Both the position numbers and the translations under genes were made by a program. DNA of 64,000 nucleotides, from the IMG/VR virus record IMGVR_UViG_2693429713_000009; one strand, written 5' to 3'. This DNA comes from a virus. Taxonomy: Duplodnaviria; Heunggongvirae; Uroviricota; Caudoviricetes. Below the pieces are notes generated by a model. That model saw only the letters and a list, made by a program, of their open reading frames with translations. It made no database searches and was not told the DNA's origin. The number at the start of each line of letters is the position of its first letter. Within the stretch, counting starts at the first letter, position 1. Shown here piece by piece: positions 3,143-28,095 of the stretch.

Positions 3143-3174
3143 TAACTTTAAATAATTGGCATTATTTAAAGTTA
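3143..3174. other. lox-like recombination site candidate (inverted arms around an asymmetric core)
   Basis: TAACTTTAAATA-ATTGGCAT-TATTTAAAGTTA: 12-bp perfect inverted arms flanking an 8-bp asymmetric spacer, about 150 bp upstream of the Cre-like gene. Confidence 0.4.
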
Positions 3175-3326
3175 GGCTATAATCATGTGTAGATGAACAG
3201 TGTTGACATCACTGAAAATACGTGCCTCGAATCAAAGGCTTGTATTTTGAAAATTAACTTATAGCTACCCTGTCATTTTTATATTTTTCGCGTAGCGTCA
3301 TCTGTATATAGAGGTCAAATAGTTTC

Positions 3327-4355
3327 ATGAGTGAATTAATTATCTCTGGCAGTTCCGGTGGTTTTCTGCGCAACATTGGCAAAGAGTACCAGGAAGCCGC
3401 AGAAAACTTTATGCGGTTCATGAATGACCAGGGGGCTTATGCGCCGAATACTCTGCGCGACCTCCGTTTGGTGTTTCATTCCTGGGCGCGCTGGTGTCAC
3501 GCTCGCCAGCTTGCCTGGTTTCCGATCTCACCAGAAATGGCCCGCGAGTATTTTCTTCAGCTGCATGATGCCGATCTGGCTTCGACCACCATTGATAAGC
3601 ACTACGCCATGCTGAACATGCTGCTTTCGCATTGTGGCCTTCCGCCACTTTCGGATGATAAAAGTGTTTCTCTGGCTATGCGGCGCATCCGGCGCGAAGC
3701 GGCAACTGAAAAAGGCGAACGAACAGGCCAGGCTATACCGCTGCGGTGGGACGATCTGAAACTGCTCGACGTCCTGTTGTCCAGGTCAGAACGGCTGGTG
3801 GACCTGCGCAACCGGGCTTTTCTCTTTGTTGCATACAATACGCTGATGCGTATGTCGGAAATATCGCGTATTCGTGTAGGTGATCTGGACCAAACAGGTG
3901 ACACTGTCACGCTACATATTTCACACACGAAGACAATAACGACCGCCGCCGGGCTTGATAAGGTGCTTTCCCGTCGCACTACCGCTGTGCTGAATGACTG
4001 GCTGGATGTTTCCGGGCTTCGCGAACACCCTGACGCAGTGCTGTTCCCGCCGATACACCGTAGCAATAAGGCCAGGATCACGACAACGCCACTTACTGCA
4101 CCTGCAATGGAGAAAATATTCAGCGACGCCTGGGTGTTGCTGAATAAAAGAGATGCTACGCCAAACAAAGGAAGATACCGGACGTGGACCGGGCATAGTG
4201 CACGCGTCGGGGCCGCTATTGATATGGCTGAAAAGCAGGTGTCTATGGTGGAGATCATGCAGGAAGGAACCTGGAAGAAACCGGAAACACTTATGCGGTA
4301 TCTCCGCCGTGGCGGCGTGTCTGTGGGGGCTAATAGCCGCCTGATGGATTCGTAA
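3327..4355 (+). CDS. cre: Cre-like tyrosine site-specific recombinase
   Basis: 342 aa; alignable by eye with P1 Cre (…SVSLAMRRIRRE…, AYNTLMRMSEISRIRV, TGHSARVGAA, LMRYLRR with catalytic Tyr); R-K-H-R-W-Y positions conserved. Confidence 0.85.
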   Translation: MSELIISGSSGGFLRNIGKEYQEAAENFMRFMNDQGAYAPNTLRDLRLVFHSWARWCHARQLAWFPISPEMAREYFLQLHDADLASTTIDKHYAMLNMLLSHCGLPPLSDDKSVSLAMRRIRREAATEKGERTGQAIPLRWDDLKLLDVLLSRSERLVDLRNRAFLFVAYNTLMRMSEISRIRVGDLDQTGDTVTLHISHTKTITTAAGLDKVLSRRTTAVLNDWLDVSGLREHPDAVLFPPIHRSNKARITTTPLTAPAMEKIFSDAWVLLNKRDATPNKGRYRTWTGHSARVGAAIDMAEKQVSMVEIMQEGTWKKPETLMRYLRRGGVSVGANSRLMDS

Positions 4356-4356
4356 A

Positions 4357-4372
4357 TTAAATTTCTAACACA
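4357..4372 (-). promoter_or_regulatory. operator-like motif, site B (TGTGTTAGAAATTTAA on minus strand)
   Basis: Same motif family as site A; lies immediately after cre stop and upstream of the next operon. Confidence 0.35.
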
Positions 4373-4428
4373 TCTTTTTAGATTAACATCTTTGCTGTAA
4401 AGTACCCTCGCCTACTTAGGAGGGTGCT

Positions 4429-4773
4429 TTGCAGAGTCAAATCACGGAATCAAGACGCTTCAAGGTGGATGGTTACACCGTAACCTTCGCCGCTGGTGTT
4501 AAGAACAGTCATGCTGTCGTTGTGTTCGGCATCATGACCGGGCTTGAGGCCGTCCCTGTGTTTACCCTCGAAAAAAACTGGCGAAATCTGGCGGAAGCAG
4601 AAAGCTACGTCCGGAAAGTAACCATCATTGCCGCCGAAAAACTCCTGGCCCACTATCAGGAAAATTATCGCACTATGGTCGAGAAGATTAATCTCGCTTT
4701 CACTCGCCCCACTACCGGCTTTATTGCACCGGATACTAATGCAGGTCGATATCCTGCAAGGGGGCGTCGGTGA
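4429..4773 (+). CDS. hypothetical protein (TTG start)
   Basis: 114 aa ORF preceded by AGGAGG; ATGA overlap with next gene. Confidence 0.5.
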   Translation: MQSQITESRRFKVDGYTVTFAAGVKNSHAVVVFGIMTGLEAVPVFTLEKNWRNLAEAESYVRKVTIIAAEKLLAHYQENYRTMVEKINLAFTRPTTGFIAPDTNAGRYPARGRR

Positions 4774-5246
4774 AAACTTATTACCCATCTCTGAATTGTT
4801 ACCCATCTTCCTATCCAGAATTATCCGGGAAGCTGTTAGCTCTATTAGCTAAAGCACCTACGGAATGGTTTAAGCCAGTCGTTATCAATCCACACTTCCT
4901 GGATTACGGAACTGTTCGCACTCGTAACGAACTCAAAAACCTACTGGCGCATGGATTCATTCGACACCGTGCCGGGAAAGGCTATCAGTTAGCGATTGCG
5001 CCAGAAGAGGCCGTGCGGCTATTCGCATATCGTGACAGCCAGACAAAAGCTCGGGTAATAGCTCAAATACTTCATAACGGCAGCACCTATGCCCGCCAGT
5101 TTGGCGGCGACACGTCGCAGTTCTTGCGGGCGGTGCGATCGCTGGAGGAGCAAGGAGTTATTGAAAGTTCCTGTCTTCCTGTTCCTACCGTTCCACATAT
5201 CAAACGTCGGGTTTACACCTTCACGCAGAGAGCTAAAAAACAATGA
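4770..5246 (+). CDS. hypothetical protein
   Basis: 158 aa ORF translationally coupled on both sides (ATGA overlaps). Confidence 0.5.
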   Translation: MKTYYPSLNCYPSSYPELSGKLLALLAKAPTEWFKPVVINPHFLDYGTVRTRNELKNLLAHGFIRHRAGKGYQLAIAPEEAVRLFAYRDSQTKARVIAQILHNGSTYARQFGGDTSQFLRAVRSLEEQGVIESSCLPVPTVPHIKRRVYTFTQRAKKQ

Positions 5247-5737
5247 TTTACGTAAAAGTGAAACGCCTACATCCGGCAGCAAAACTTCCAGCTTATGCCA
5301 CCTCCGGATCGGCGGCGATGGATTTTGAGGCTGTTGAAATAAAACCATGCGTCGATAGCAATGGTGCAATTTCCTCAAGCTGGTGGGTGTACACCGGACT
5401 GGCTATGGAGATCCCGCCCGGCTGGTGTCTGAAACTCTATCCGCGCTCCGGATTGGGCTGCAAAAAACATACTCGCCTGGCTAACTGCGTAGGAATTATC
5501 GACTCCGATTATCGCGGTGAAATCATGGCAAAACTGATTACTGATCCAGGCGGGGAAGTCGTTCGTCTCAAGCCTGGAATGGCTGTCATGCAAGGCATTT
5601 TTGAGCGTGTTGAACAAGTCTCACTAGTCGAGGTTGAGGAACTCAACGAAACGGAACGTGGTGCTGGTGGCTTTGGTAGCACATCGGAAGACCACTTTGA
5701 AATCAAGCGCACACCGCTTCAGTACGCAAAGTTTTAA
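5243..5737 (+). CDS. dut: dUTP diphosphatase (dUTPase)
   Basis: 164 aa; hallmark dUTPase motifs (…YPRSGLG…, GIIDSDYRGE). Confidence 0.8.
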   Translation: MIYVKVKRLHPAAKLPAYATSGSAAMDFEAVEIKPCVDSNGAISSSWWVYTGLAMEIPPGWCLKLYPRSGLGCKKHTRLANCVGIIDSDYRGEIMAKLITDPGGEVVRLKPGMAVMQGIFERVEQVSLVEVEELNETERGAGGFGSTSEDHFEIKRTPLQYAKF

Positions 5738-5751
5738 GCAGAGGAAAGGCT

Positions 5752-6402
5752 ATGAATTACATGGCAACGAAAGAGCTTTTTAAGTTCCTTCCCAAATACA
5801 AAGCTCACAAAAACGTTAGTGCATCGAAAATCAAAAATGTTGTTATTTTCGGAGTAACTGATGCCCCACTTTGGGGCTGCATTGAACTCGTTGAACCAAA
5901 AGGGGCAACAGTTTGTGTTGACGCAATATTTTTACAAAAACACCGACCAAAAACTGGCGGGTATCTGATCGTTTATGAAAACGGTTATCTGTTCTATGCC
6001 CCGGAGAAACCATTTGAGGAATGCTATGGCCTGGTTAACGACGCCTCCGAAAATGGAACCACGGTCATCATTACGGATGACAACGGCGTGATGATTAATA
6101 TTACCGGGAGCGTAACTATTTCTGCTGGTGGTACCACTACCCAGCAAGAGGAAATCGACCTTGAAGCAGCCGACTTTTCTGATGCGCTAATGTGGCTGAA
6201 AGAAGGAAAAAATGTAGCTCGACGCGAGTGGAAAGGCGAAAAGCAATTCTGCTGGTTAGTTCTCGCTGGGAGCGTCAATTTACACGACATTCAGGTTCCT
6301 TATGGTGACCATTTCGTATTGAAAGATGCACAAAATATGGACAGCGTTTGGTTGCCGTCTGTTGATGATTTACTGGCTTGTGACTGGTTTGTAGTGGAGT
6401 GA
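5752..6402 (+). CDS. hypothetical phage protein with C-terminal DUF2829-like motif
   Basis: 216 aa; C-terminal ALMWLKEGKNVARREWKG…W pattern recalled from a phage DUF family (from memory). Confidence 0.45.
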   Translation: MNYMATKELFKFLPKYKAHKNVSASKIKNVVIFGVTDAPLWGCIELVEPKGATVCVDAIFLQKHRPKTGGYLIVYENGYLFYAPEKPFEECYGLVNDASENGTTVIITDDNGVMINITGSVTISAGGTTTQQEEIDLEAADFSDALMWLKEGKNVARREWKGEKQFCWLVLAGSVNLHDIQVPYGDHFVLKDAQNMDSVWLPSVDDLLACDWFVVE

Positions 6403-6408
6403 TTTGAC

Positions 6409-7176
6409 ATGGAAAGCACCAAAACAATTCAATACCGCTTGCGTAATGGCCTGCTGGTGGCTGTTAACGCCGACATGTCACTGCCGTTTGACACGATTGA
6501 ACGCACTATCATGACGTATCTCGGCTTTAATGAAGAGCTGAATGAAGAGCATGGCGTAGCTATATGGAGTGATGCAGACAGCGGCGTTCGTCGTTACATC
6601 ACCGCCAGGGGCAAAGACTACTCTCTGGAAGAACTGTTTGCCCTTGCGCAGTCTTTCGAATGTGTAGCATTAGACCTGTTTAATGATCCTGCTATAGCGC
6701 AACGACTTATACGCGAGCTTGGGCTATCCGTTACACCAATTATCTTTAAAAATGGCAGCCTGACTGGCACATGGCGCGTAGAACGCATCTCAAACTACCT
6801 TCCATATAACCGACAGTTAAATGGAGTAATCTCCGGCGTTAATCAGCCCGTAGCGTGTGAAAATGTAAACCTGGTTGTCGCTGTTTTGGCAACCGCATGT
6901 CGTGTTATCGGTTTGGCTAAACAGGCATTTATTCATTTCCCAAATGGTGCAGAAGGTAGCGCAGAGATTATCGCGTGTGATTTCGAATTTACCTGGATGC
7001 TACGCGAATATCTGGACCAAACAGTGTTCCGCGCCGAAGAACTGGATATGTATATCACGTCAACGATTCCTGATGATGTGCGTGCTGAAGCAATCGCTAC
7101 AGCAAGGGCCAAATGCCGTGCGGCGATTGCAGAGCAGGCCAAAGAAGAAGTTAAGGAAGTGGCAGATGGCGACTAA
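6409..7176 (+). CDS. hypothetical protein, upstream partner of terminase-like paralog
   Basis: 255 aa ORF; 11-nt overlap with downstream terminase-like gene; same small-then-large arrangement as the pac genes. Confidence 0.45.
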   Translation: MESTKTIQYRLRNGLLVAVNADMSLPFDTIERTIMTYLGFNEELNEEHGVAIWSDADSGVRRYITARGKDYSLEELFALAQSFECVALDLFNDPAIAQRLIRELGLSVTPIIFKNGSLTGTWRVERISNYLPYNRQLNGVISGVNQPVACENVNLVVAVLATACRVIGLAKQAFIHFPNGAEGSAEIIACDFEFTWMLREYLDQTVFRAEELDMYITSTIPDDVRAEAIATARAKCRAAIAEQAKEEVKEVADGD

Positions 7177-8260
7177 GAGCAATATTTATAAAGATCCGCG
7201 CTGGCTGTCGCTGGTGGAGAAATATAAAGACAATTGGGTTCTGGCAGCAAAAGAATTGTTTGATATTGATTTAAGCCACCAGCAACAACAAATTGTTGAA
7301 GCTATACAGCCCAATAATGCAAAAGCTACTGTCACCACTCCGCATGGGATCGGACGACCGCAAGTGCTTGCTGTTATTAGTACCCTTTATACGATTATGT
7401 ATCCTGATTCCCGGACAGTAATTGTTTATCCAAAATCAAATGCTTGCAAAAAAGGAATTGTTGCATATGTGTGGCAATGTTGGGAGGCATTACTGAAAAA
7501 ACAACCTTTTATCATTGAGTATTTTAAGGTCGGTGATAGCGGTCTGATGTTCAATGAATTTTGGGGAATGTGCTTTTGTAACTACCGCCTTAACTATGAA
7601 GATAGCATTGCAGGTCACTACGCCGACCATCTGTTATTCATTATTGTGGATTCCGCACATATAAGCGATCGGGCATACAGTATTGTGTGGGCAAGCATGA
7701 CTAGTGGTGATTCACGCATATTGCTCACTTCAATTCCGTCACCAGAGGAAATAGGATTTTTTTATGATTCTCATCATGGGCGTGCTTTAGCTGAAGATAA
7801 TCCGAGTGGTGTCTATAAAGCCATTAAGCTGAGTGCTGAGGATTCACCATTTATTACCCAAGAATATCTTGATCATTTTGCCGAAAGGTATGGCGGGCGA
7901 AATAGTGATGACTACCGTCGTATGATTCTTGGTGAGTTCCCTGGTATTAGGGAGGCTGTTCTTGAATCAGATATGCCGAAAACAATGCGTTTTTCAATGC
8001 CTGATGGCAGTGAATGGACAATGCCATTACGAGTGATAGCCAAGCATCATGCACAGCACCACGCCAAAAAACATGGCGTTACAACATTAGAGTGGTTGAA
8101 ATCGCACACCATTCCACTCTTCACTGCAGATCACAATGCTATCGTTGAGTGGGCAAAAACAATTCCGTGGGGGAATGTCGCTGAATACGCCCACATGCTA
8201 AAACCGCCGAAAGACAGGCAAGAAATTAGCTGGCTGACAGCAGAAAAAATCATTGAGTGA
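7166..8260 (+). CDS. terminase-large-subunit-like paralog with degenerate Walker A
   Basis: 364 aa; shares DPRW, HQQQQI, FYDSHH, EDSPF, YGGR(D/N)S, LG(Q/E)FP blocks with the 359-1867 terminase, but P-loop is PHGIGRPQ instead of GHGTGKS and the C-terminus is unrelated. Confidence 0.55.
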   Translation: MATKSNIYKDPRWLSLVEKYKDNWVLAAKELFDIDLSHQQQQIVEAIQPNNAKATVTTPHGIGRPQVLAVISTLYTIMYPDSRTVIVYPKSNACKKGIVAYVWQCWEALLKKQPFIIEYFKVGDSGLMFNEFWGMCFCNYRLNYEDSIAGHYADHLLFIIVDSAHISDRAYSIVWASMTSGDSRILLTSIPSPEEIGFFYDSHHGRALAEDNPSGVYKAIKLSAEDSPFITQEYLDHFAERYGGRNSDDYRRMILGEFPGIREAVLESDMPKTMRFSMPDGSEWTMPLRVIAKHHAQHHAKKHGVTTLEWLKSHTIPLFTADHNAIVEWAKTIPWGNVAEYAHMLKPPKDRQEISWLTAEKIIE

Positions 8261-8267
8261 TAGTAGA

Positions 8268-8297
8268 AAGCCCGCCTGGTTGAGCGGGCTTCTTTTC
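8268..8297. terminator. intrinsic terminator hairpin between convergent genes
   Basis: AAGCCCGC-ctggttga-GCGGGCTT followed by CTTTTC. Confidence 0.55.
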
Positions 8298-8676
8298 AAA
8301 TATTGGAACCATATAGTTCACGTAGTTTTTCCGCTACTGAAGATACGGGGATTTCACCAGTTGCAGCCCCCACCGCAAGTTCCACCAGCACGGGAGAATC
8401 ATATACCTGTATACCGTTACGGCGTAGAAATAGCAGCGCACTGTTTAGCGCGGTACGCTTATTGGCATCATTGAATATATGCCCTCTCGCTGTAGCCACC
8501 AGGTAGGTGGCGGAGACTTCGAAAAGGTCGGTGATCTCTTCGTAGGCAACTCTGGCCTGAACTCTCCCGATAATGGCCTCTGCCCTACCCGGATCTGACA
8601 TTCCCGGCAGGCCGCCGTAGCGGTTTATATTCGCATCATGAAGCGCAATAAGTTCTTCCGGTGATATATGCCTCAT
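8296..8676 (-). CDS. doc: Doc toxin (Fic-fold kinase) of the phd-doc addiction module
   Basis: 126 aa; N-terminus [17 protein letters not shown]…; nearly identical to P1 Doc as I recall it. Confidence 0.9.
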
Positions 8677-8897
8677 TATCGGTTAACCAGTTCCTTGTTG
8701 GTGGAGTCCAGGGTGTCAAACAGGGATGCAAATTCAGCATCCAGCGCCGCTTTTTTGTAGGCTTCGAAAGTAGCCTTGCTGACAATTACTGCTGGCTCAC
8801 GGCCTCTGCGGGTGATTTCAACCTCTTCCCCGGCTTCAACATTGTTGAGCACTTCAGAAAGGTTGCCGCGCGCGGTACGGAAGTTAATGGATTGCAT
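8676..8897 (-). CDS. phd: Phd antitoxin
   Basis: 73 aa from ATG at 8897 ([17 protein letters not shown]…); stop overlaps doc start. Confidence 0.9.
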
Positions 8898-8906
8898 AAA
8901 CACCTC

Positions 8907-9624: not shown

Positions 9625-10149
9625 TTATTGGCTATGGCTAAAAATCAAATGAGACACTTCATGTGGTTGTAGCTCGTCAAGATCCGGGGCCACAAAACCT
9701 TTTCCGAAAGACTTCACAAGTAATTCACCAGCCGCATCATTGTCACCTATTACACGAAAGTCATACGGCAGCATCGCAAGTTGACGGCGTAATCCTGCGG
9801 AGAAAGTCGAACCTAACAGCGCCCACGAATTGCCGCCCGCGTTGTGTACAGCTGCGCTCTTAAAAATAGACTCAGTTATCCATATTGGGCCATCTTTTAA
9901 AGGAAGATAGGTTCCCCAAAGTAACTGTCTGCCGTGTGATCGCGTGAAATACCGGGCCATCTTCGGATTGCTATGCTGCTTAGGTGCACCTGGTCTATAT
10001 GTCTGATACCCAGCCAACATCCCATCAAACCTGTAGAGAGGGAATGTAACTACTCCTTCGCTTTCATCGATCCACTGTCTATATGGGTGTATATCATGGC
10101 GGTAGTTGCGAGTTAGCAAATGAGCTTCCAGCTTTCCAAATTTTGTCAT
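9625..10149 (-). CDS. hypothetical protein with Toprim-like motif
   Basis: 174 aa from ATG 10149 (ATGA overlap with upstream gene); …WITESIF…VIGDNDAAG resembles Toprim E…DxD. Confidence 0.35.
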   Translation of the reverse strand: MTKFGKLEAHLLTRNYRHDIHPYRQWIDESEGVVTFPLYRFDGMLAGYQTYRPGAPKQHSNPKMARYFTRSHGRQLLWGTYLPLKDGPIWITESIFKSAAVHNAGGNSWALLGSTFSAGLRRQLAMLPYDFRVIGDNDAAGELLVKSFGKGFVAPDLDELQPHEVSHLIFSHSQ

Positions 10150-10451
10150 ATTCCGTTCTTCCTGCATACTGGGCATGTGTTCTCTGTGAAATATGGGAAA
10201 CTATTATCCAGCTCATCTACCCACTGTTTATGGTCGAAGCAGAAAAATATCTCCCACGGCATTCCATATTCTTCCATCCATAGGCGGATCTGCATTTCTA
10301 TTGGAATCGGCGGTATTGCAGACACCATATCAACAGGATAACAGTTCAGACGACGTTCCAGTTCTTCTACTCTCTTCTGGAGATGAAATATCCGATCCAG
10401 ATGCACACGCCGCTCCCGTGCCATTTTAAAATAAAGCTCGCCGGTCATCAT
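10146..10451 (-). CDS. small Cys/His-rich protein, paralog 1
   Basis: 101 aa; C-terminus FFCFDHKQWVDELDNSFPYFTENTCPVCRK. Confidence 0.5.
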   Translation of the reverse strand: MMTGELYFKMARERRVHLDRIFHLQKRVEELERRLNCYPVDMVSAIPPIPIEMQIRLWMEEYGMPWEIFFCFDHKQWVDELDNSFPYFTENTCPVCRKNGI

Positions 10452-10735
10452 TAACGCCTACATTCAGGGCAAGAGTTCCCTTCTGCAAAATAGGGGAAAC
10501 TGCTATCAAGCTCATCACACCATCCGCGATGGTCGTAGCACCAAAACGCCTCCCACGGCGCACGGAAATACTTCATCCACCAGGACACTCGATCTGGTAT
10601 ATCTGCTGGTGGCAGCTCTTCTGGCAATAATTTGCCTGATAATTCCCTTTCCGCCCGTGCCAGCATTCCTTTTAGACTCGCGTTTTCTTTTTCAAGAATC
10701 TCTACGCGAGCCTGTAACTCAGCTTTCGTTGGCAT
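10451..10735 (-). CDS. small Cys/His-rich protein, paralog 2
   Basis: 95 aa from ATG 10735; coiled-coil segment then FWCYDHRGWCDELDSSFPYFAEGNSCPECRR, clearly paralogous to 10146-10451. Confidence 0.5.
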   Translation of the reverse strand: MPTKAELQARVEILEKENASLKGMLARAERELSGKLLPEELPPADIPDRVSWWMKYFRAPWEAFWCYDHRGWCDELDSSFPYFAEGNSCPECRR

Positions 10736-11483
10736 GGCCCGCCTCATGTTTATCAGCCACCAGCGGCAATAAAGCCTTAGCCATTTCATGAACCAACATG
10801 GCATCAATAACGCCTAGCGTATGGCCTGGCTTAATCTTTAATGCGGCCTCAAGATAGCCTCTTTCCAGAGTGGTTTTTACGCTTTTCCTGGGCGCTTGTT
10901 GGGAACTATCCGGAAGAACCGGATGGTTCCCAGCCTCATAGGCTACCCGCAACCAGTGCATGAATGTTTCCGCAGACACACAGCCGCAGTCCACATCGAT
11001 TTCCCCGCGTTGCTGCTCCAGCCATTGCTCAAAATCTAACTTGTAAGCCTTACTTTCAGGTTCATCACCATTGAACTCGACTTTCTGCGACGCTATGAGA
11101 GCGGCTTCGTACTGTTCGCGAGTGACAACCGATGTAAACGCACTGCGATCAAGGTCACTGATATCGCAAATAATGCCATCAATGGAATAATTCTTTGATG
11201 ATTGGTAATTTTTATGGTGCGTACCAAAAAGAACCATAGCGCGACTACTACCTGGCATCGTAATGGATAGATGGCAAAAATCTTTTCCATCAGGCCATCC
11301 ACGCCCCTTAGATAATTCCTTCACTAACAAGTCAATCAGTGTCATAGCGTTACCATCCTTGCAAGGCGCTAAAGCTATTTTGGCAAGCTCCAATACTTCA
11401 TCTGCTGCGTATCCAGCACTGTGACCATACATTTCGATGCTGGTGATAATCTCTGATATGCGTTTTTTAGTGATTCTTGTCAT
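10719..11483 (-). CDS. hypothetical protein
   Basis: 254 aa from ATG 11483 (ATGA overlap with upstream gene). Confidence 0.5.
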   Translation of the reverse strand: MTRITKKRISEIITSIEMYGHSAGYAADEVLELAKIALAPCKDGNAMTLIDLLVKELSKGRGWPDGKDFCHLSITMPGSSRAMVLFGTHHKNYQSSKNYSIDGIICDISDLDRSAFTSVVTREQYEAALIASQKVEFNGDEPESKAYKLDFEQWLEQQRGEIDVDCGCVSAETFMHWLRVAYEAGNHPVLPDSSQQAPRKSVKTTLERGYLEAALKIKPGHTLGVIDAMLVHEMAKALLPLVADKHEAGHANES

Positions 11484-26935: not shown

Positions 26936-27685
26936 TTACTTGTCCTTTGATGTCGATTGAGACTCATATATTGTCTCCACGTCATCTATTAATTTATTAA
27001 TACCCCACAATCCAGTGTCTTTATAAAAATCACTTTCTTCAATTGCTTTTAATAAATCGGCAAAATCTTCTTTGGTGGAAATCCTTTTATCTTTTGCTTT
27101 ATATATATCAACAATTACTTTTATACCGTGATACAGAGCCACTCTGGCACTCTCAATCTCTCTCTTCTTTTCTTCGATTGTATTCAGTATTTTTTGTTGA
27201 CCTTCTATTTGTTCCTCTAATTTTAAAAGCTCTTCCTCTTTTTTCTTTAGGTTTCTCAGTAACGCCTTTACTCTTGCTTTCTCTTCTGAGTCAAATTCAT
27301 GGTCAATGTATCTTATTTGCGCATAATTTCTACCAGTTAGTTTTGATATACGCATAGTAATATAAGGCATTACTATGGACGCAATAGTGCCATATATAAA
27401 CGGCATCACAAAGTGAGCTAAAAACGGAGATACAATGAAGGTTCCAAAATAAGGGATTTGATATTTATCCCCTACCCATACTATAGACAGTGTTGTGTAT
27501 ATATCATATTTAGATTTAAACAAAATTAGTATTTCTTGCCAATTAACGACAAAAAATGAAACCACCACATATGCAAATAATTTATTAAATAATTTATCTT
27601 TTATGGCTTCATCCATTGTGCCCTTGATTGAGTCAATTGTAGATGTGTTTTCTGTTGATGAATTTTTGCTCATACAAGCTATCAA
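26936..27685 (-). CDS. membrane protein with C-terminal coiled coil; candidate exclusion/abortive-infection cargo
   Basis: 249 aa; strongly AT-rich relative to flanks; two predicted TM helices then coiled coil. Confidence 0.45.
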   Translation of the reverse strand: MIACMSKNSSTENTSTIDSIKGTMDEAIKDKLFNKLFAYVVVSFFVVNWQEILILFKSKYDIYTTLSIVWVGDKYQIPYFGTFIVSPFLAHFVMPFIYGTIASIVMPYITMRISKLTGRNYAQIRYIDHEFDSEEKARVKALLRNLKKKEEELLKLEEQIEGQQKILNTIEEKKREIESARVALYHGIKVIVDIYKAKDKRISTKEDFADLLKAIEESDFYKDTGLWGINKLIDDVETIYESQSTSKDK

Positions 27686-27735
27686 ACCTTCTAATTTTTA
27701 TTTTAGATAAAAAGCGGTCCTCCAGACCGCCAAAC

Positions 27736-28095
27736 TTAAACACCAACCAGACTTTCCAGTGGAATACCAAACTGGGCATGTAAACGACGAATCATAGGTA
27801 ACGTCAAATTTCGTGTCCCATTAAGCACTTCGTAAACACGGTTTGACTTACCAATTGCCGGTTCCAGATCCTTCACGGTCAGCCCTTGCTGTTCCATACG
27901 GAATTTAATGGCCTCAATAGGTGATGGTGGCTCAATTGGGTAATGTTTTTTCTCGTACTCCTCAATGAGAAGACACATAACCTCAAAGAAATCGCCTTCC
28001 GGTGTGTTCATTTCCGGTTCATTATCGAACATCGGTTCGACCGCACGCAGTGCGGCCTCATAATCTTGTTCTGTACGGATAGGTTTAATGTTCAT
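27736..28095 (-). CDS. higA: HigA-family antitoxin (HTH-XRE)
   Basis: 119 aa; C-terminal HTH (…GLTVKDLEPAIGKSNRVYEVLNGTRNLTL…); downstream of toxin gene as in higBA. Confidence 0.65.
   Translation of the reverse strand: MNIKPIRTEQDYEAALRAVEPMFDNEPEMNTPEGDFFEVMCLLIEEYEKKHYPIEPPSPIEAIKFRMEQQGLTVKDLEPAIGKSNRVYEVLNGTRNLTLPMIRRLHAQFGIPLESLVGV

Follow-up and report, generated by a model that had tools for sequence, protein, structure and literature searches.

A pseudo-terminase related to PacB in a P1-family phage-plasmid and its possible role in genetic conflict

Introduction

No proteins of tailed phages are more conserved than the large terminases, which are also a principal target of bacterial pattern-recognition immunity. 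Extra phage proteins that are built on the terminase ATPase fold or resemble it have been described, namely vs.8 of phage T4 and Ksap1 and Ksap2. They carry no nuclease domain, are restricted to certain lineages and have no known function; vs.8 keeps both the Walker A and the Walker B motif and activates EcAvs2 (PMC13601566). Here, a protein of this kind is described from a D6-type phage-plasmid of the P1 family, IMG/VR virus record IMGVR_UViG_2693429713_000009. The window analyzed is the whole 64,000-nucleotide stretch of this record. The gene in question (7166-8260) follows a homolog of the P1 gene isaA, and its 364-amino-acid product is a paralog of PacB, the large terminase (TerL), which is encoded in the same window (Table 1). 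With high confidence, the paralog can be described as an ancient, selectively maintained copy of the PacB ATPase domain that has lost the catalytic residues and the nuclease half.

The closest described protein is PacB of the P1/D6 type. Homology between the two extends across the entire N-terminal ATPase domain: like PacB, the paralog has the N-terminal block, the Q-motif region, the FYDSHH block and the hinge YGGRxS..Y..LGxFP. Unlike PacB, it has no Walker A lysine, no Walker B Asp-Glu and no nuclease domain; its gene is not beside pacA, lies outside the late operon and is dispensable. It differs from vs.8 in that both Walker motifs are lost, a C-terminal domain is added and the gene is coupled to isaA; the vs.8 and Ksap proteins were compared by their description and not by sequence. 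Similarly, two described gene arrangements resemble the locus. The isaA-IS1-isaB segment of P1 (variable region RD-2) begins with an isaA ortholog, and IS1-free P1-type plasmids hold isaA and the paralog at exactly this ssb-hxr locus. However, canonical P1 has IS1 and the unrelated isaB there, and the pair in the window lies at the end of the cre operon, converging on doc. The pacA-pacB pair is also made of two overlapping co-oriented genes, the upstream product having an acidic tail and the downstream product a PacB-like N-terminus, but IsaA has neither sequence or profile similarity to PacA or the small terminase (TerS) nor their N-terminal helix-turn-helix. No description of a dead terminase paralog family was found in the literature searched. 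The new element here is a pseudo-terminase fused to a new small domain, for which the nearest known proteins are PacB and the Walker-retaining vs.8-type proteins.

Results

Similarity to PacB and loss of the catalytic motifs

A first-pass annotation, made from the sequence without database searches, had called the 364-amino-acid product a paralog of the large terminase based on a string of common blocks, and this was verified. BLASTP aligned the product with PacB over 258 amino acids with 38% identity and 62% similarity (E 4e-58). The alignment covers PacB residues 10-264 and ends at residue 259 of the paralog, the GEFP hinge, where the nuclease domain begins. All the listed blocks are present (DPRW, HQQQQI, FYDSHH, EDSPF/EESPF, YGGRNS/YGGRDS and LGEFP/LGQFP). 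The paralog matched the profile phrog_5902 (E 2e-165) as well as the TerL profile phrog_2 (E 3e-9), and tblastn returned annotated TerLs of Clostridium, Bacillus and Xanthomonas phages (E 1e-9 to 1e-16). Neither the paralog nor IsaA had a match in Pfam or NCBIfam, and sequence searches of PDB with the single proteins, an IsaA profile and a profile of six paralog N-domains gave only chance matches. In a neighbor-joining tree with a Xanthomonas phage terminase as the outgroup, the paralog alleles group together in a single clade, whose sister group comprises all P1-supergroup PacBs. The paralog is 33-38% identical to the PacBs, which are 54-81% identical to each other, and PacB is its closest relative among the proteins found. 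The ungapped 38% identity to PacB suggests that the fold of the N-domain is intact.

The Walker A segment reads TPHGIGRPQ in the paralog and SGHGTGKSS in PacB. The lack of Lys and Ser was pointed out in the first-pass annotation; the lysine is replaced in all six alleles. The Walker B segment, IIVDSA in the paralog and ILDEAS in PacB, is degenerate as well, which the first-pass annotation does not mention. GHGTGKS and DEASG are found in all the PacBs, whereas the Walker A stretch of all the paralogs is TTPxGIG with R, Q, H or E after it. Of 60 positions that are invariant among seven PacBs and the outgroup TerL, 22 are retained in all paralog alleles, and the lost ones include G62, T65, K67, D167, E168, Q196 (coupling-motif region) and R199. 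Variation that falls precisely on the catalytic positions, while the rest of the domain is conserved, marks a pseudo-enzyme rather than an unusual active site. The nuclease domain is absent, and the remaining 105 amino acids belong to an unrelated small-domain family. Since the catalytic motifs and the nuclease are lost and the gene is dispensable, the paralog cannot be the packaging enzyme. A sequencing error that hides a canonical motif, which had been considered beforehand, is excluded: the six alleles, divergent as they are, share these degenerate motifs, and so do more than 1,000 database sequences in the paralog clusters.

The start codon ATG at 7166 stands six bases after a Shine-Dalgarno sequence, AAGGAAG (7153-7159), and the first 11 nucleotides of the gene lie within the end of the upstream one, in agreement with the translational coupling proposed earlier.

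Every catalytic and contextual feature of a TerL is missing despite the clear ATPase-domain homology; the annotation "terminase large subunit" is therefore wrong and should not be given to the paralog. Automated phage annotation should, likewise, not count it as a second terminase. Both MH422554.1 (16006-17100) and one metagenome-assembled genome entry (P0001; window 6875-8260, plus strand) give the paralog this label, and in the latter it is also stretched to 438 amino acids from an in-frame upstream start overlapping isaA; these are annotation artifacts.

C-terminal domain

The replacement of the C-terminal nuclease region was correctly recognized in the first-pass annotation, but the "unrelated His-rich tail" described there is a conserved domain predicted to be folded. 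AlphaFold2 predicted its structure with a confidence score (pLDDT) of 92.6. The histidines are peculiar to the enterobacterial members and are not conserved across the family. A HMMER scan with residues 255-364 collected 197 clusters at E < 1e-3 (P0025-P0172 among the members), with the family consensus MPDGSxWxVP..IA..RA..YA...DT.PLF...EI.DWA.NNM.W.DV. No Pfam model and no solved structural relative of the family was found, and a word-indexed homolog search with the domain alone returned fragments only. This analysis thus brings to light a small phage domain family of about 200 clusters that is widespread and undescribed.

The domain is found in different settings. In Cronobacter phage JK004, it is a separate gene just after that of a DnaB-type helicase. 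The Xanthomonas CP2-like phages have it as the C-terminus of a 471-amino-acid protein whose gene neighbors those for recombinase, exonuclease and SSB. In one case, a Lar-like domain is its fusion partner. The surroundings of two stand-alone C-domain genes, located on short contigs, were uninformative.

The upstream gene isaA

The two genes had been presented as a terminase-like pair mimicking the small-plus-large terminase arrangement. This holds for the downstream gene and for the overlapping layout; the 255-amino-acid upstream product, however, is not TerS-like in sequence or profile. It belongs to the IsaA family (phrog_2326, E 1e-133 over 1-252). Its gene is 97% identical in DNA to D6 orf113, annotated "similar to P1 gene isaA", and the protein has 48% amino-acid identity to P1-type IsaA. 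Resemblance to the true small terminase was looked for, and IsaA was rejected as a PacA paralog, with a best BLASTP E of 0.36 over 29 amino acids and an hhalign probability of 0.2%. The isaA gene is non-essential in P1, as measured by CRISPR interference (PMC10695390). Every member of the clade has IsaA, which persists also where the paralog is missing. Its tail type is strictly linked to the N-domain allele of the paralog.

Selection and allele exchange

The ratio of nonsynonymous to synonymous substitutions (dN/dS, omega) was calculated pairwise by the Nei-Gojobori method. It was 0.12-0.29 for the paralog N-domain, 0.13-0.17 for the C-domain and 0.06-0.27 for isaA, and the synonymous sites (dS) were saturated between lineages. 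The database search gave only eight paralog clusters, all on Escherichia phage-plasmid contigs of ~90 kb. Six alleles can be told apart among these clusters and related loci; their N-domains have 41-76% identity, and their open reading frames (ORFs) of 364-366 amino acids are intact. A full-length intact paralog is carried by 163 of the 754 PacB-bearing P1-like plasmids in PLSDB (~22%), and ~78% are without it.

Comparison with three related loci (L005, L007 and L035) revealed a mosaic. Identity is 96-100% through isaA to ~7140, DNA identity is 50-65% over the IsaA tail and the whole N-domain (~7140 to ~7930), and from 7938 on it is again 93-100%. The exchanged allele cassette consists of the end of isaA from ~7140 and the N-domain stretch 7166-7945. 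Three N-domain alleles, 51-55% identical, are flanked by near-identical sequence. Because dS is high in the divergent part, this indicates allele replacement, not local acceleration. Co-variation of the paralog alleles with the resident PacA or PacB was not found; in the compared elements PacB is 96-100% identical, and PacA is mostly 93-100% identical and 73% identical in L039.

Genomic contexts, gain and loss

The isaA-paralog pair was found to recur in both D6-type and P1-type elements, as the comparative analysis suggested in the first-pass annotation was meant to determine, though the paralog is optional. Wherever D6-type elements carry the pair, it stands last in the cre operon. Its P1-type counterpart (52% and 48% identical) has ssb on one side and hxr on the other and adjoins the dar anti-restriction operon. 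In both contexts, the paralog stands straight after isaA, with overlapping stop and start, and is outside the Lpa-dependent late pac operon.

Canonical P1 (L003, NC_005856 21569-24132) has an intact isaA. Homology stops at the end of this gene, IS1 and the unrelated isaB follow, and there is no paralog. P1 isaB was also considered as a remnant of the paralog and was rejected, as no similarity was found. The P1 isaA locus is a recognized hypervariable region of P1-like plasmids (PMC6906374, PMC9603915). D6 is likewise without the paralog, and its isaA is followed by a pdcA-like gene. The laboratory phage P1 is thus unrepresentative for the isaA locus. The gene has been overlooked because canonical P1 has IS1 and an unrelated gene at this place and because pipelines call it "hypothetical protein" or, wrongly, "terminase large subunit". 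Over the region of the isaA-paralog pair, the window has 100% identity to the Salmonella enterica plasmid NZ_CP028198.1 (92,366 bp), whose record names each of the two genes "hypothetical protein".

Among IMG/VR elements with a PacB 96-100% identical to that of the window, 13 have the paralog and about 10 do not. Three D6-like loci (L029, L031 and L036) have kept only its last 37 nucleotides, homologous to 8224-8260, together with the long-tail type of isaA; this scar marks a clean deletion from a P0004-type allele. In the L017/P0007 lineage, the C-domain alone is deleted and the N-domain is kept. These patterns show the paralog to be an optional accessory gene that has been repeatedly deleted.

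Possible function of the paralog

ATP hydrolysis and DNA cutting by the paralog are implausible, yet the protein is conserved; it must therefore act by binding. PacB and the paralog still have in common the surface blocks DPRW..KY (N-terminal), FYDSHH and YGGRxS..Y..LGxFP. The mechanism ranked first, and proposed here tentatively and with low confidence, is a conflict-related role as a terminase mimic. The mimic would be made before the late genes and would occupy or block factors that recognize the terminase ATPase domain. Candidates for such factors are sensors of the host (Avs1-3 or Upx, for example) and components of competing elements. The acidic tail of IsaA may make this protein a partner of the paralog. 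The conflict-related role is supported by the accessory behavior of the gene, the Tad2-like and dar neighbors and the allele exchange independent of the resident terminase. There is also precedent, since T4 vs.8, Ksap1 and Ksap2 resemble the terminase ATPase domain, engage Avs2 and were proposed as possible anti-defense proteins (PMC13601566). In a narrower version, the paralog would be a counter-defense decoy: an ATP-blind copy of the ATPase domain, expressed from an operon other than that of the late pac genes, would bind Avs1-3 or Upx of Escherichia and Salmonella without letting them oligomerize and would thereby shield PacB, the exchangeable N-domain alleles reflecting an arms race with sensor variants. 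This version by itself is unlikely. For the description and the mechanism taken together, the chances of being right or wrong are about equal.

Several points weigh against a conflict-related role. The PADLOC defense hidden Markov models gave no match for either protein at E <= 0.1; no anti-defense library was searched. Recognition by Avs2 and Avs3 involves contacts with the ATP bound to the terminase and with features of the active site (PMC13601566). Because the paralog has neither the P-loop lysine nor the Walker B aspartate, it may not bind Avs2 or Avs3 at all. IsaA is universal and persists alone, so IsaA and the paralog need not be an obligate complex. The strict link between IsaA tail and N-domain allele would fit a contact of the tail with the N-domain, but simple adjacency explains it equally well, and physical adjacency makes the link trivial as evidence. 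There is no signal of positive selection, with an N-domain omega < 0.3, and mosaic recombination alone could account for the allele diversity. Finally, the argument from the neighborhood is guilt by association.

The rival explanations draw on the same observations in different ways. A packaging regulator is improbable but deserves consideration: the paralog would keep the surface of PacB for PacA binding or oligomerization, titrate PacA or cap PacB assemblies, and in this way slow or adjust pac cleavage and the headful packaging of the phage's own DNA. TerL binds TerS through its N-terminus in other terminases, lambda gpA-gpNu1 for example, and the N-terminal block DPRW..LV.KY and the lid and hinge blocks of the paralog are conserved with PacB. 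Its stop-start overlap with isaA is similar to the junction of pacA and pacB, and the P1-type pair, placed after ssb with its C1-controlled promoter, would be made before the late pac operon. However, the gene is outside the late packaging operon, is absent from the viable phages P1 and D6 and from ~78% of P1-like plasmids, and was lost repeatedly in lineages with 96-100% identical PacB; moreover, its highly divergent N-domain alleles occur alongside near-invariant PacA and PacB. The same allele diversity, independent of the resident terminase, and the patchy, accessory-like presence are compatible with a weapon against competitors. Here a dominant-negative terminase subunit, in superinfection exclusion or anti-satellite activity, would poison the packaging motor or the TerS of incoming related phages or hijacking elements. 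The cre operon, which has a strong sigma-70-like promoter and no P1-type C1 operator in the window, may be expressed in the lysogen. The P1-type pair behind the C1-repressed ssb promoter argues against lysogen expression, no PADLOC matches were found, and, being 33-38% identical to all PacBs, such a dominant-negative subunit would endanger the motor of its own phage. A weapon is quite unlikely, below all the explanations discussed so far.

The terminase ancestry may also be irrelevant, with the N-domain as a scaffold and the activity residing in the C-domain, in IsaA or in both, for example in early DNA metabolism or host takeover. The C-domain family is independent, widespread and usually stand-alone, it is found in early regions of other phages near DnaB, RecT, exonuclease or SSB genes, and the C-domain is the most conserved part of the paralog (omega 0.13-0.17; 93-100% DNA identity across alleles). 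However, the L017/P0007 lineage keeps the N-domain only, and the N-domain itself is under purifying selection and retains the 22 PacB-invariant positions. This explanation is rather unlikely, standing a little above the weapon and a little below the regulator. The pseudogenizing duplicate suggested in the first-pass annotation has fared worst. The catalytic motifs are gone and the gene is often deleted and absent from P1 and D6, as a decaying duplicate or a sequencing artifact would predict. Against this stand a dN/dS of 0.12-0.29 at saturated dS, the intact ORFs in six alleles and 163 plasmids, the same motif replacements in all alleles, and the conserved translational coupling, Shine-Dalgarno sequence and terminator. 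The selection analysis already refutes it, and we consider it highly improbable.

A long-lived, selected copy that has lost catalysis would mean that the terminase ATPase fold has been recruited for a non-packaging, binding-only role, and this in a phage family that ranks among the best studied. The natural presence/absence variants and allele swaps offer a one-gene handle on terminase mimics versus Avs- or Upx-type sensors, or on packaging regulation. The significance would be high if the paralog is a decoy and moderate otherwise.

Organization and expression of the locus

At its left end, the window holds the corner of the phage-plasmid devoted to packaging, immunity and recombination. The features are collected in Table 1. 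As stated in the first-pass annotation, the isaA-paralog pair converges on phd-doc.

Table 1 Features of the pseudo-terminase locus and its neighborhood in the 64,000-nucleotide window.
Feature	Position	Strand	Comment
pacA, 3' end	to 359		small terminase gene
pacB, genuine large terminase, 502 aa	359-1867	+	intact Walker A/B and nuclease domain; reference for the paralog
C1-type repressor, 345 aa	1895-2932	-	Pfam Phage_P7_repressor_C1 in related loci
sigma-70-like promoter TTGGCA-16-TATAAT	3156-3183	+	ahead of cre; 11 of 12 consensus positions
Cre-like recombinase	3327-4355	+	
two ORFs	between cre and dUTPase	+	function unknown
dUTPase (dut)	5243-5737	+	
Tad2-like-domain protein, 216 aa	5752-6402	+	directly upstream of isaA
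isaA homolog, 255 aa	6409-7176	+	P1-supergroup-specific; acidic C-terminal tail
pseudo-terminase (PacB-ATPase-domain paralog), 364 aa	7166-8260	+	dead ATPase-like N-domain and small C-terminal domain
N-terminal terminase-ATPase-like domain, aa 1-260	7166-7945	+	PacB alignment
degenerate Walker A, PHGIGRPQ vs PacB GHGTGKSS	7340-7363	+	G to P, T to I, K to R/Q/H/E over six alleles
degenerate Walker B, LLFIIVDS vs PacB LLLILDEA	7631-7654	+	Asp to V/T/A/M/I, Glu to D/E/N over alleles
C-terminal globular domain, ~95 aa, in place of the nuclease domain	7967-8257	+	family of mostly stand-alone ~100-aa phage proteins
terminator-like hairpin, GC-rich, with T/A runs	~8267-8297		between paralog stop and doc stop
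doc-phd	8296-8903	-	isaA-paralog pair converges on doc
humD (following doc and phd)	after the paralog	-	order doc, phd, humD

The genes from 3327 to 8260 are tightly packed on a single strand, and the first convincing terminator after the cre promoter is the hairpin behind the paralog. The promoter ahead of cre probably starts a seven-gene operon, cre-orf-orf-dut-tad2-like-isaA-paralog. The terminator scan placed a plus-strand stem at 8274-8289 followed by a T-run; the extension to ~8267-8297 was read by eye, and we read this hairpin as a putative shared, bidirectional terminator. The P1 C1 operator consensus had no match anywhere in the window with up to 3 mismatches allowed. Because of this, the lineage of the window probably uses a different C1 operator sequence, and C1 control cannot be assigned to the paralog operon. 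In P1, the isaA locus is downstream of C1-controlled ssb promoters. The tRNA and Rfam scans of the window were empty.

The Tad2-like (anti-Thoeris sponge) domain is formed by the C-terminal 75 amino acids of the product encoded upstream of isaA (PF11195, E 1.2e-17), and this product also matches Tad2/ModTad2 in PDB (E 1e-9). It is 57% to 100% identical among otherwise near-identical D6-like elements and resembles another swappable cassette. Elsewhere in the window, two small ORFs that look like tandem paralogs, 10146-10451 and 10451-10807 on the minus strand, have the common C-terminal motif W..F.C.DH..W.DELD.SFPYF....CP.CR, a possible zinc-binding end. The GC content dips to 0.353 at 27001-28000, compared with ~0.47 around it, and this segment may be a recently acquired cassette.

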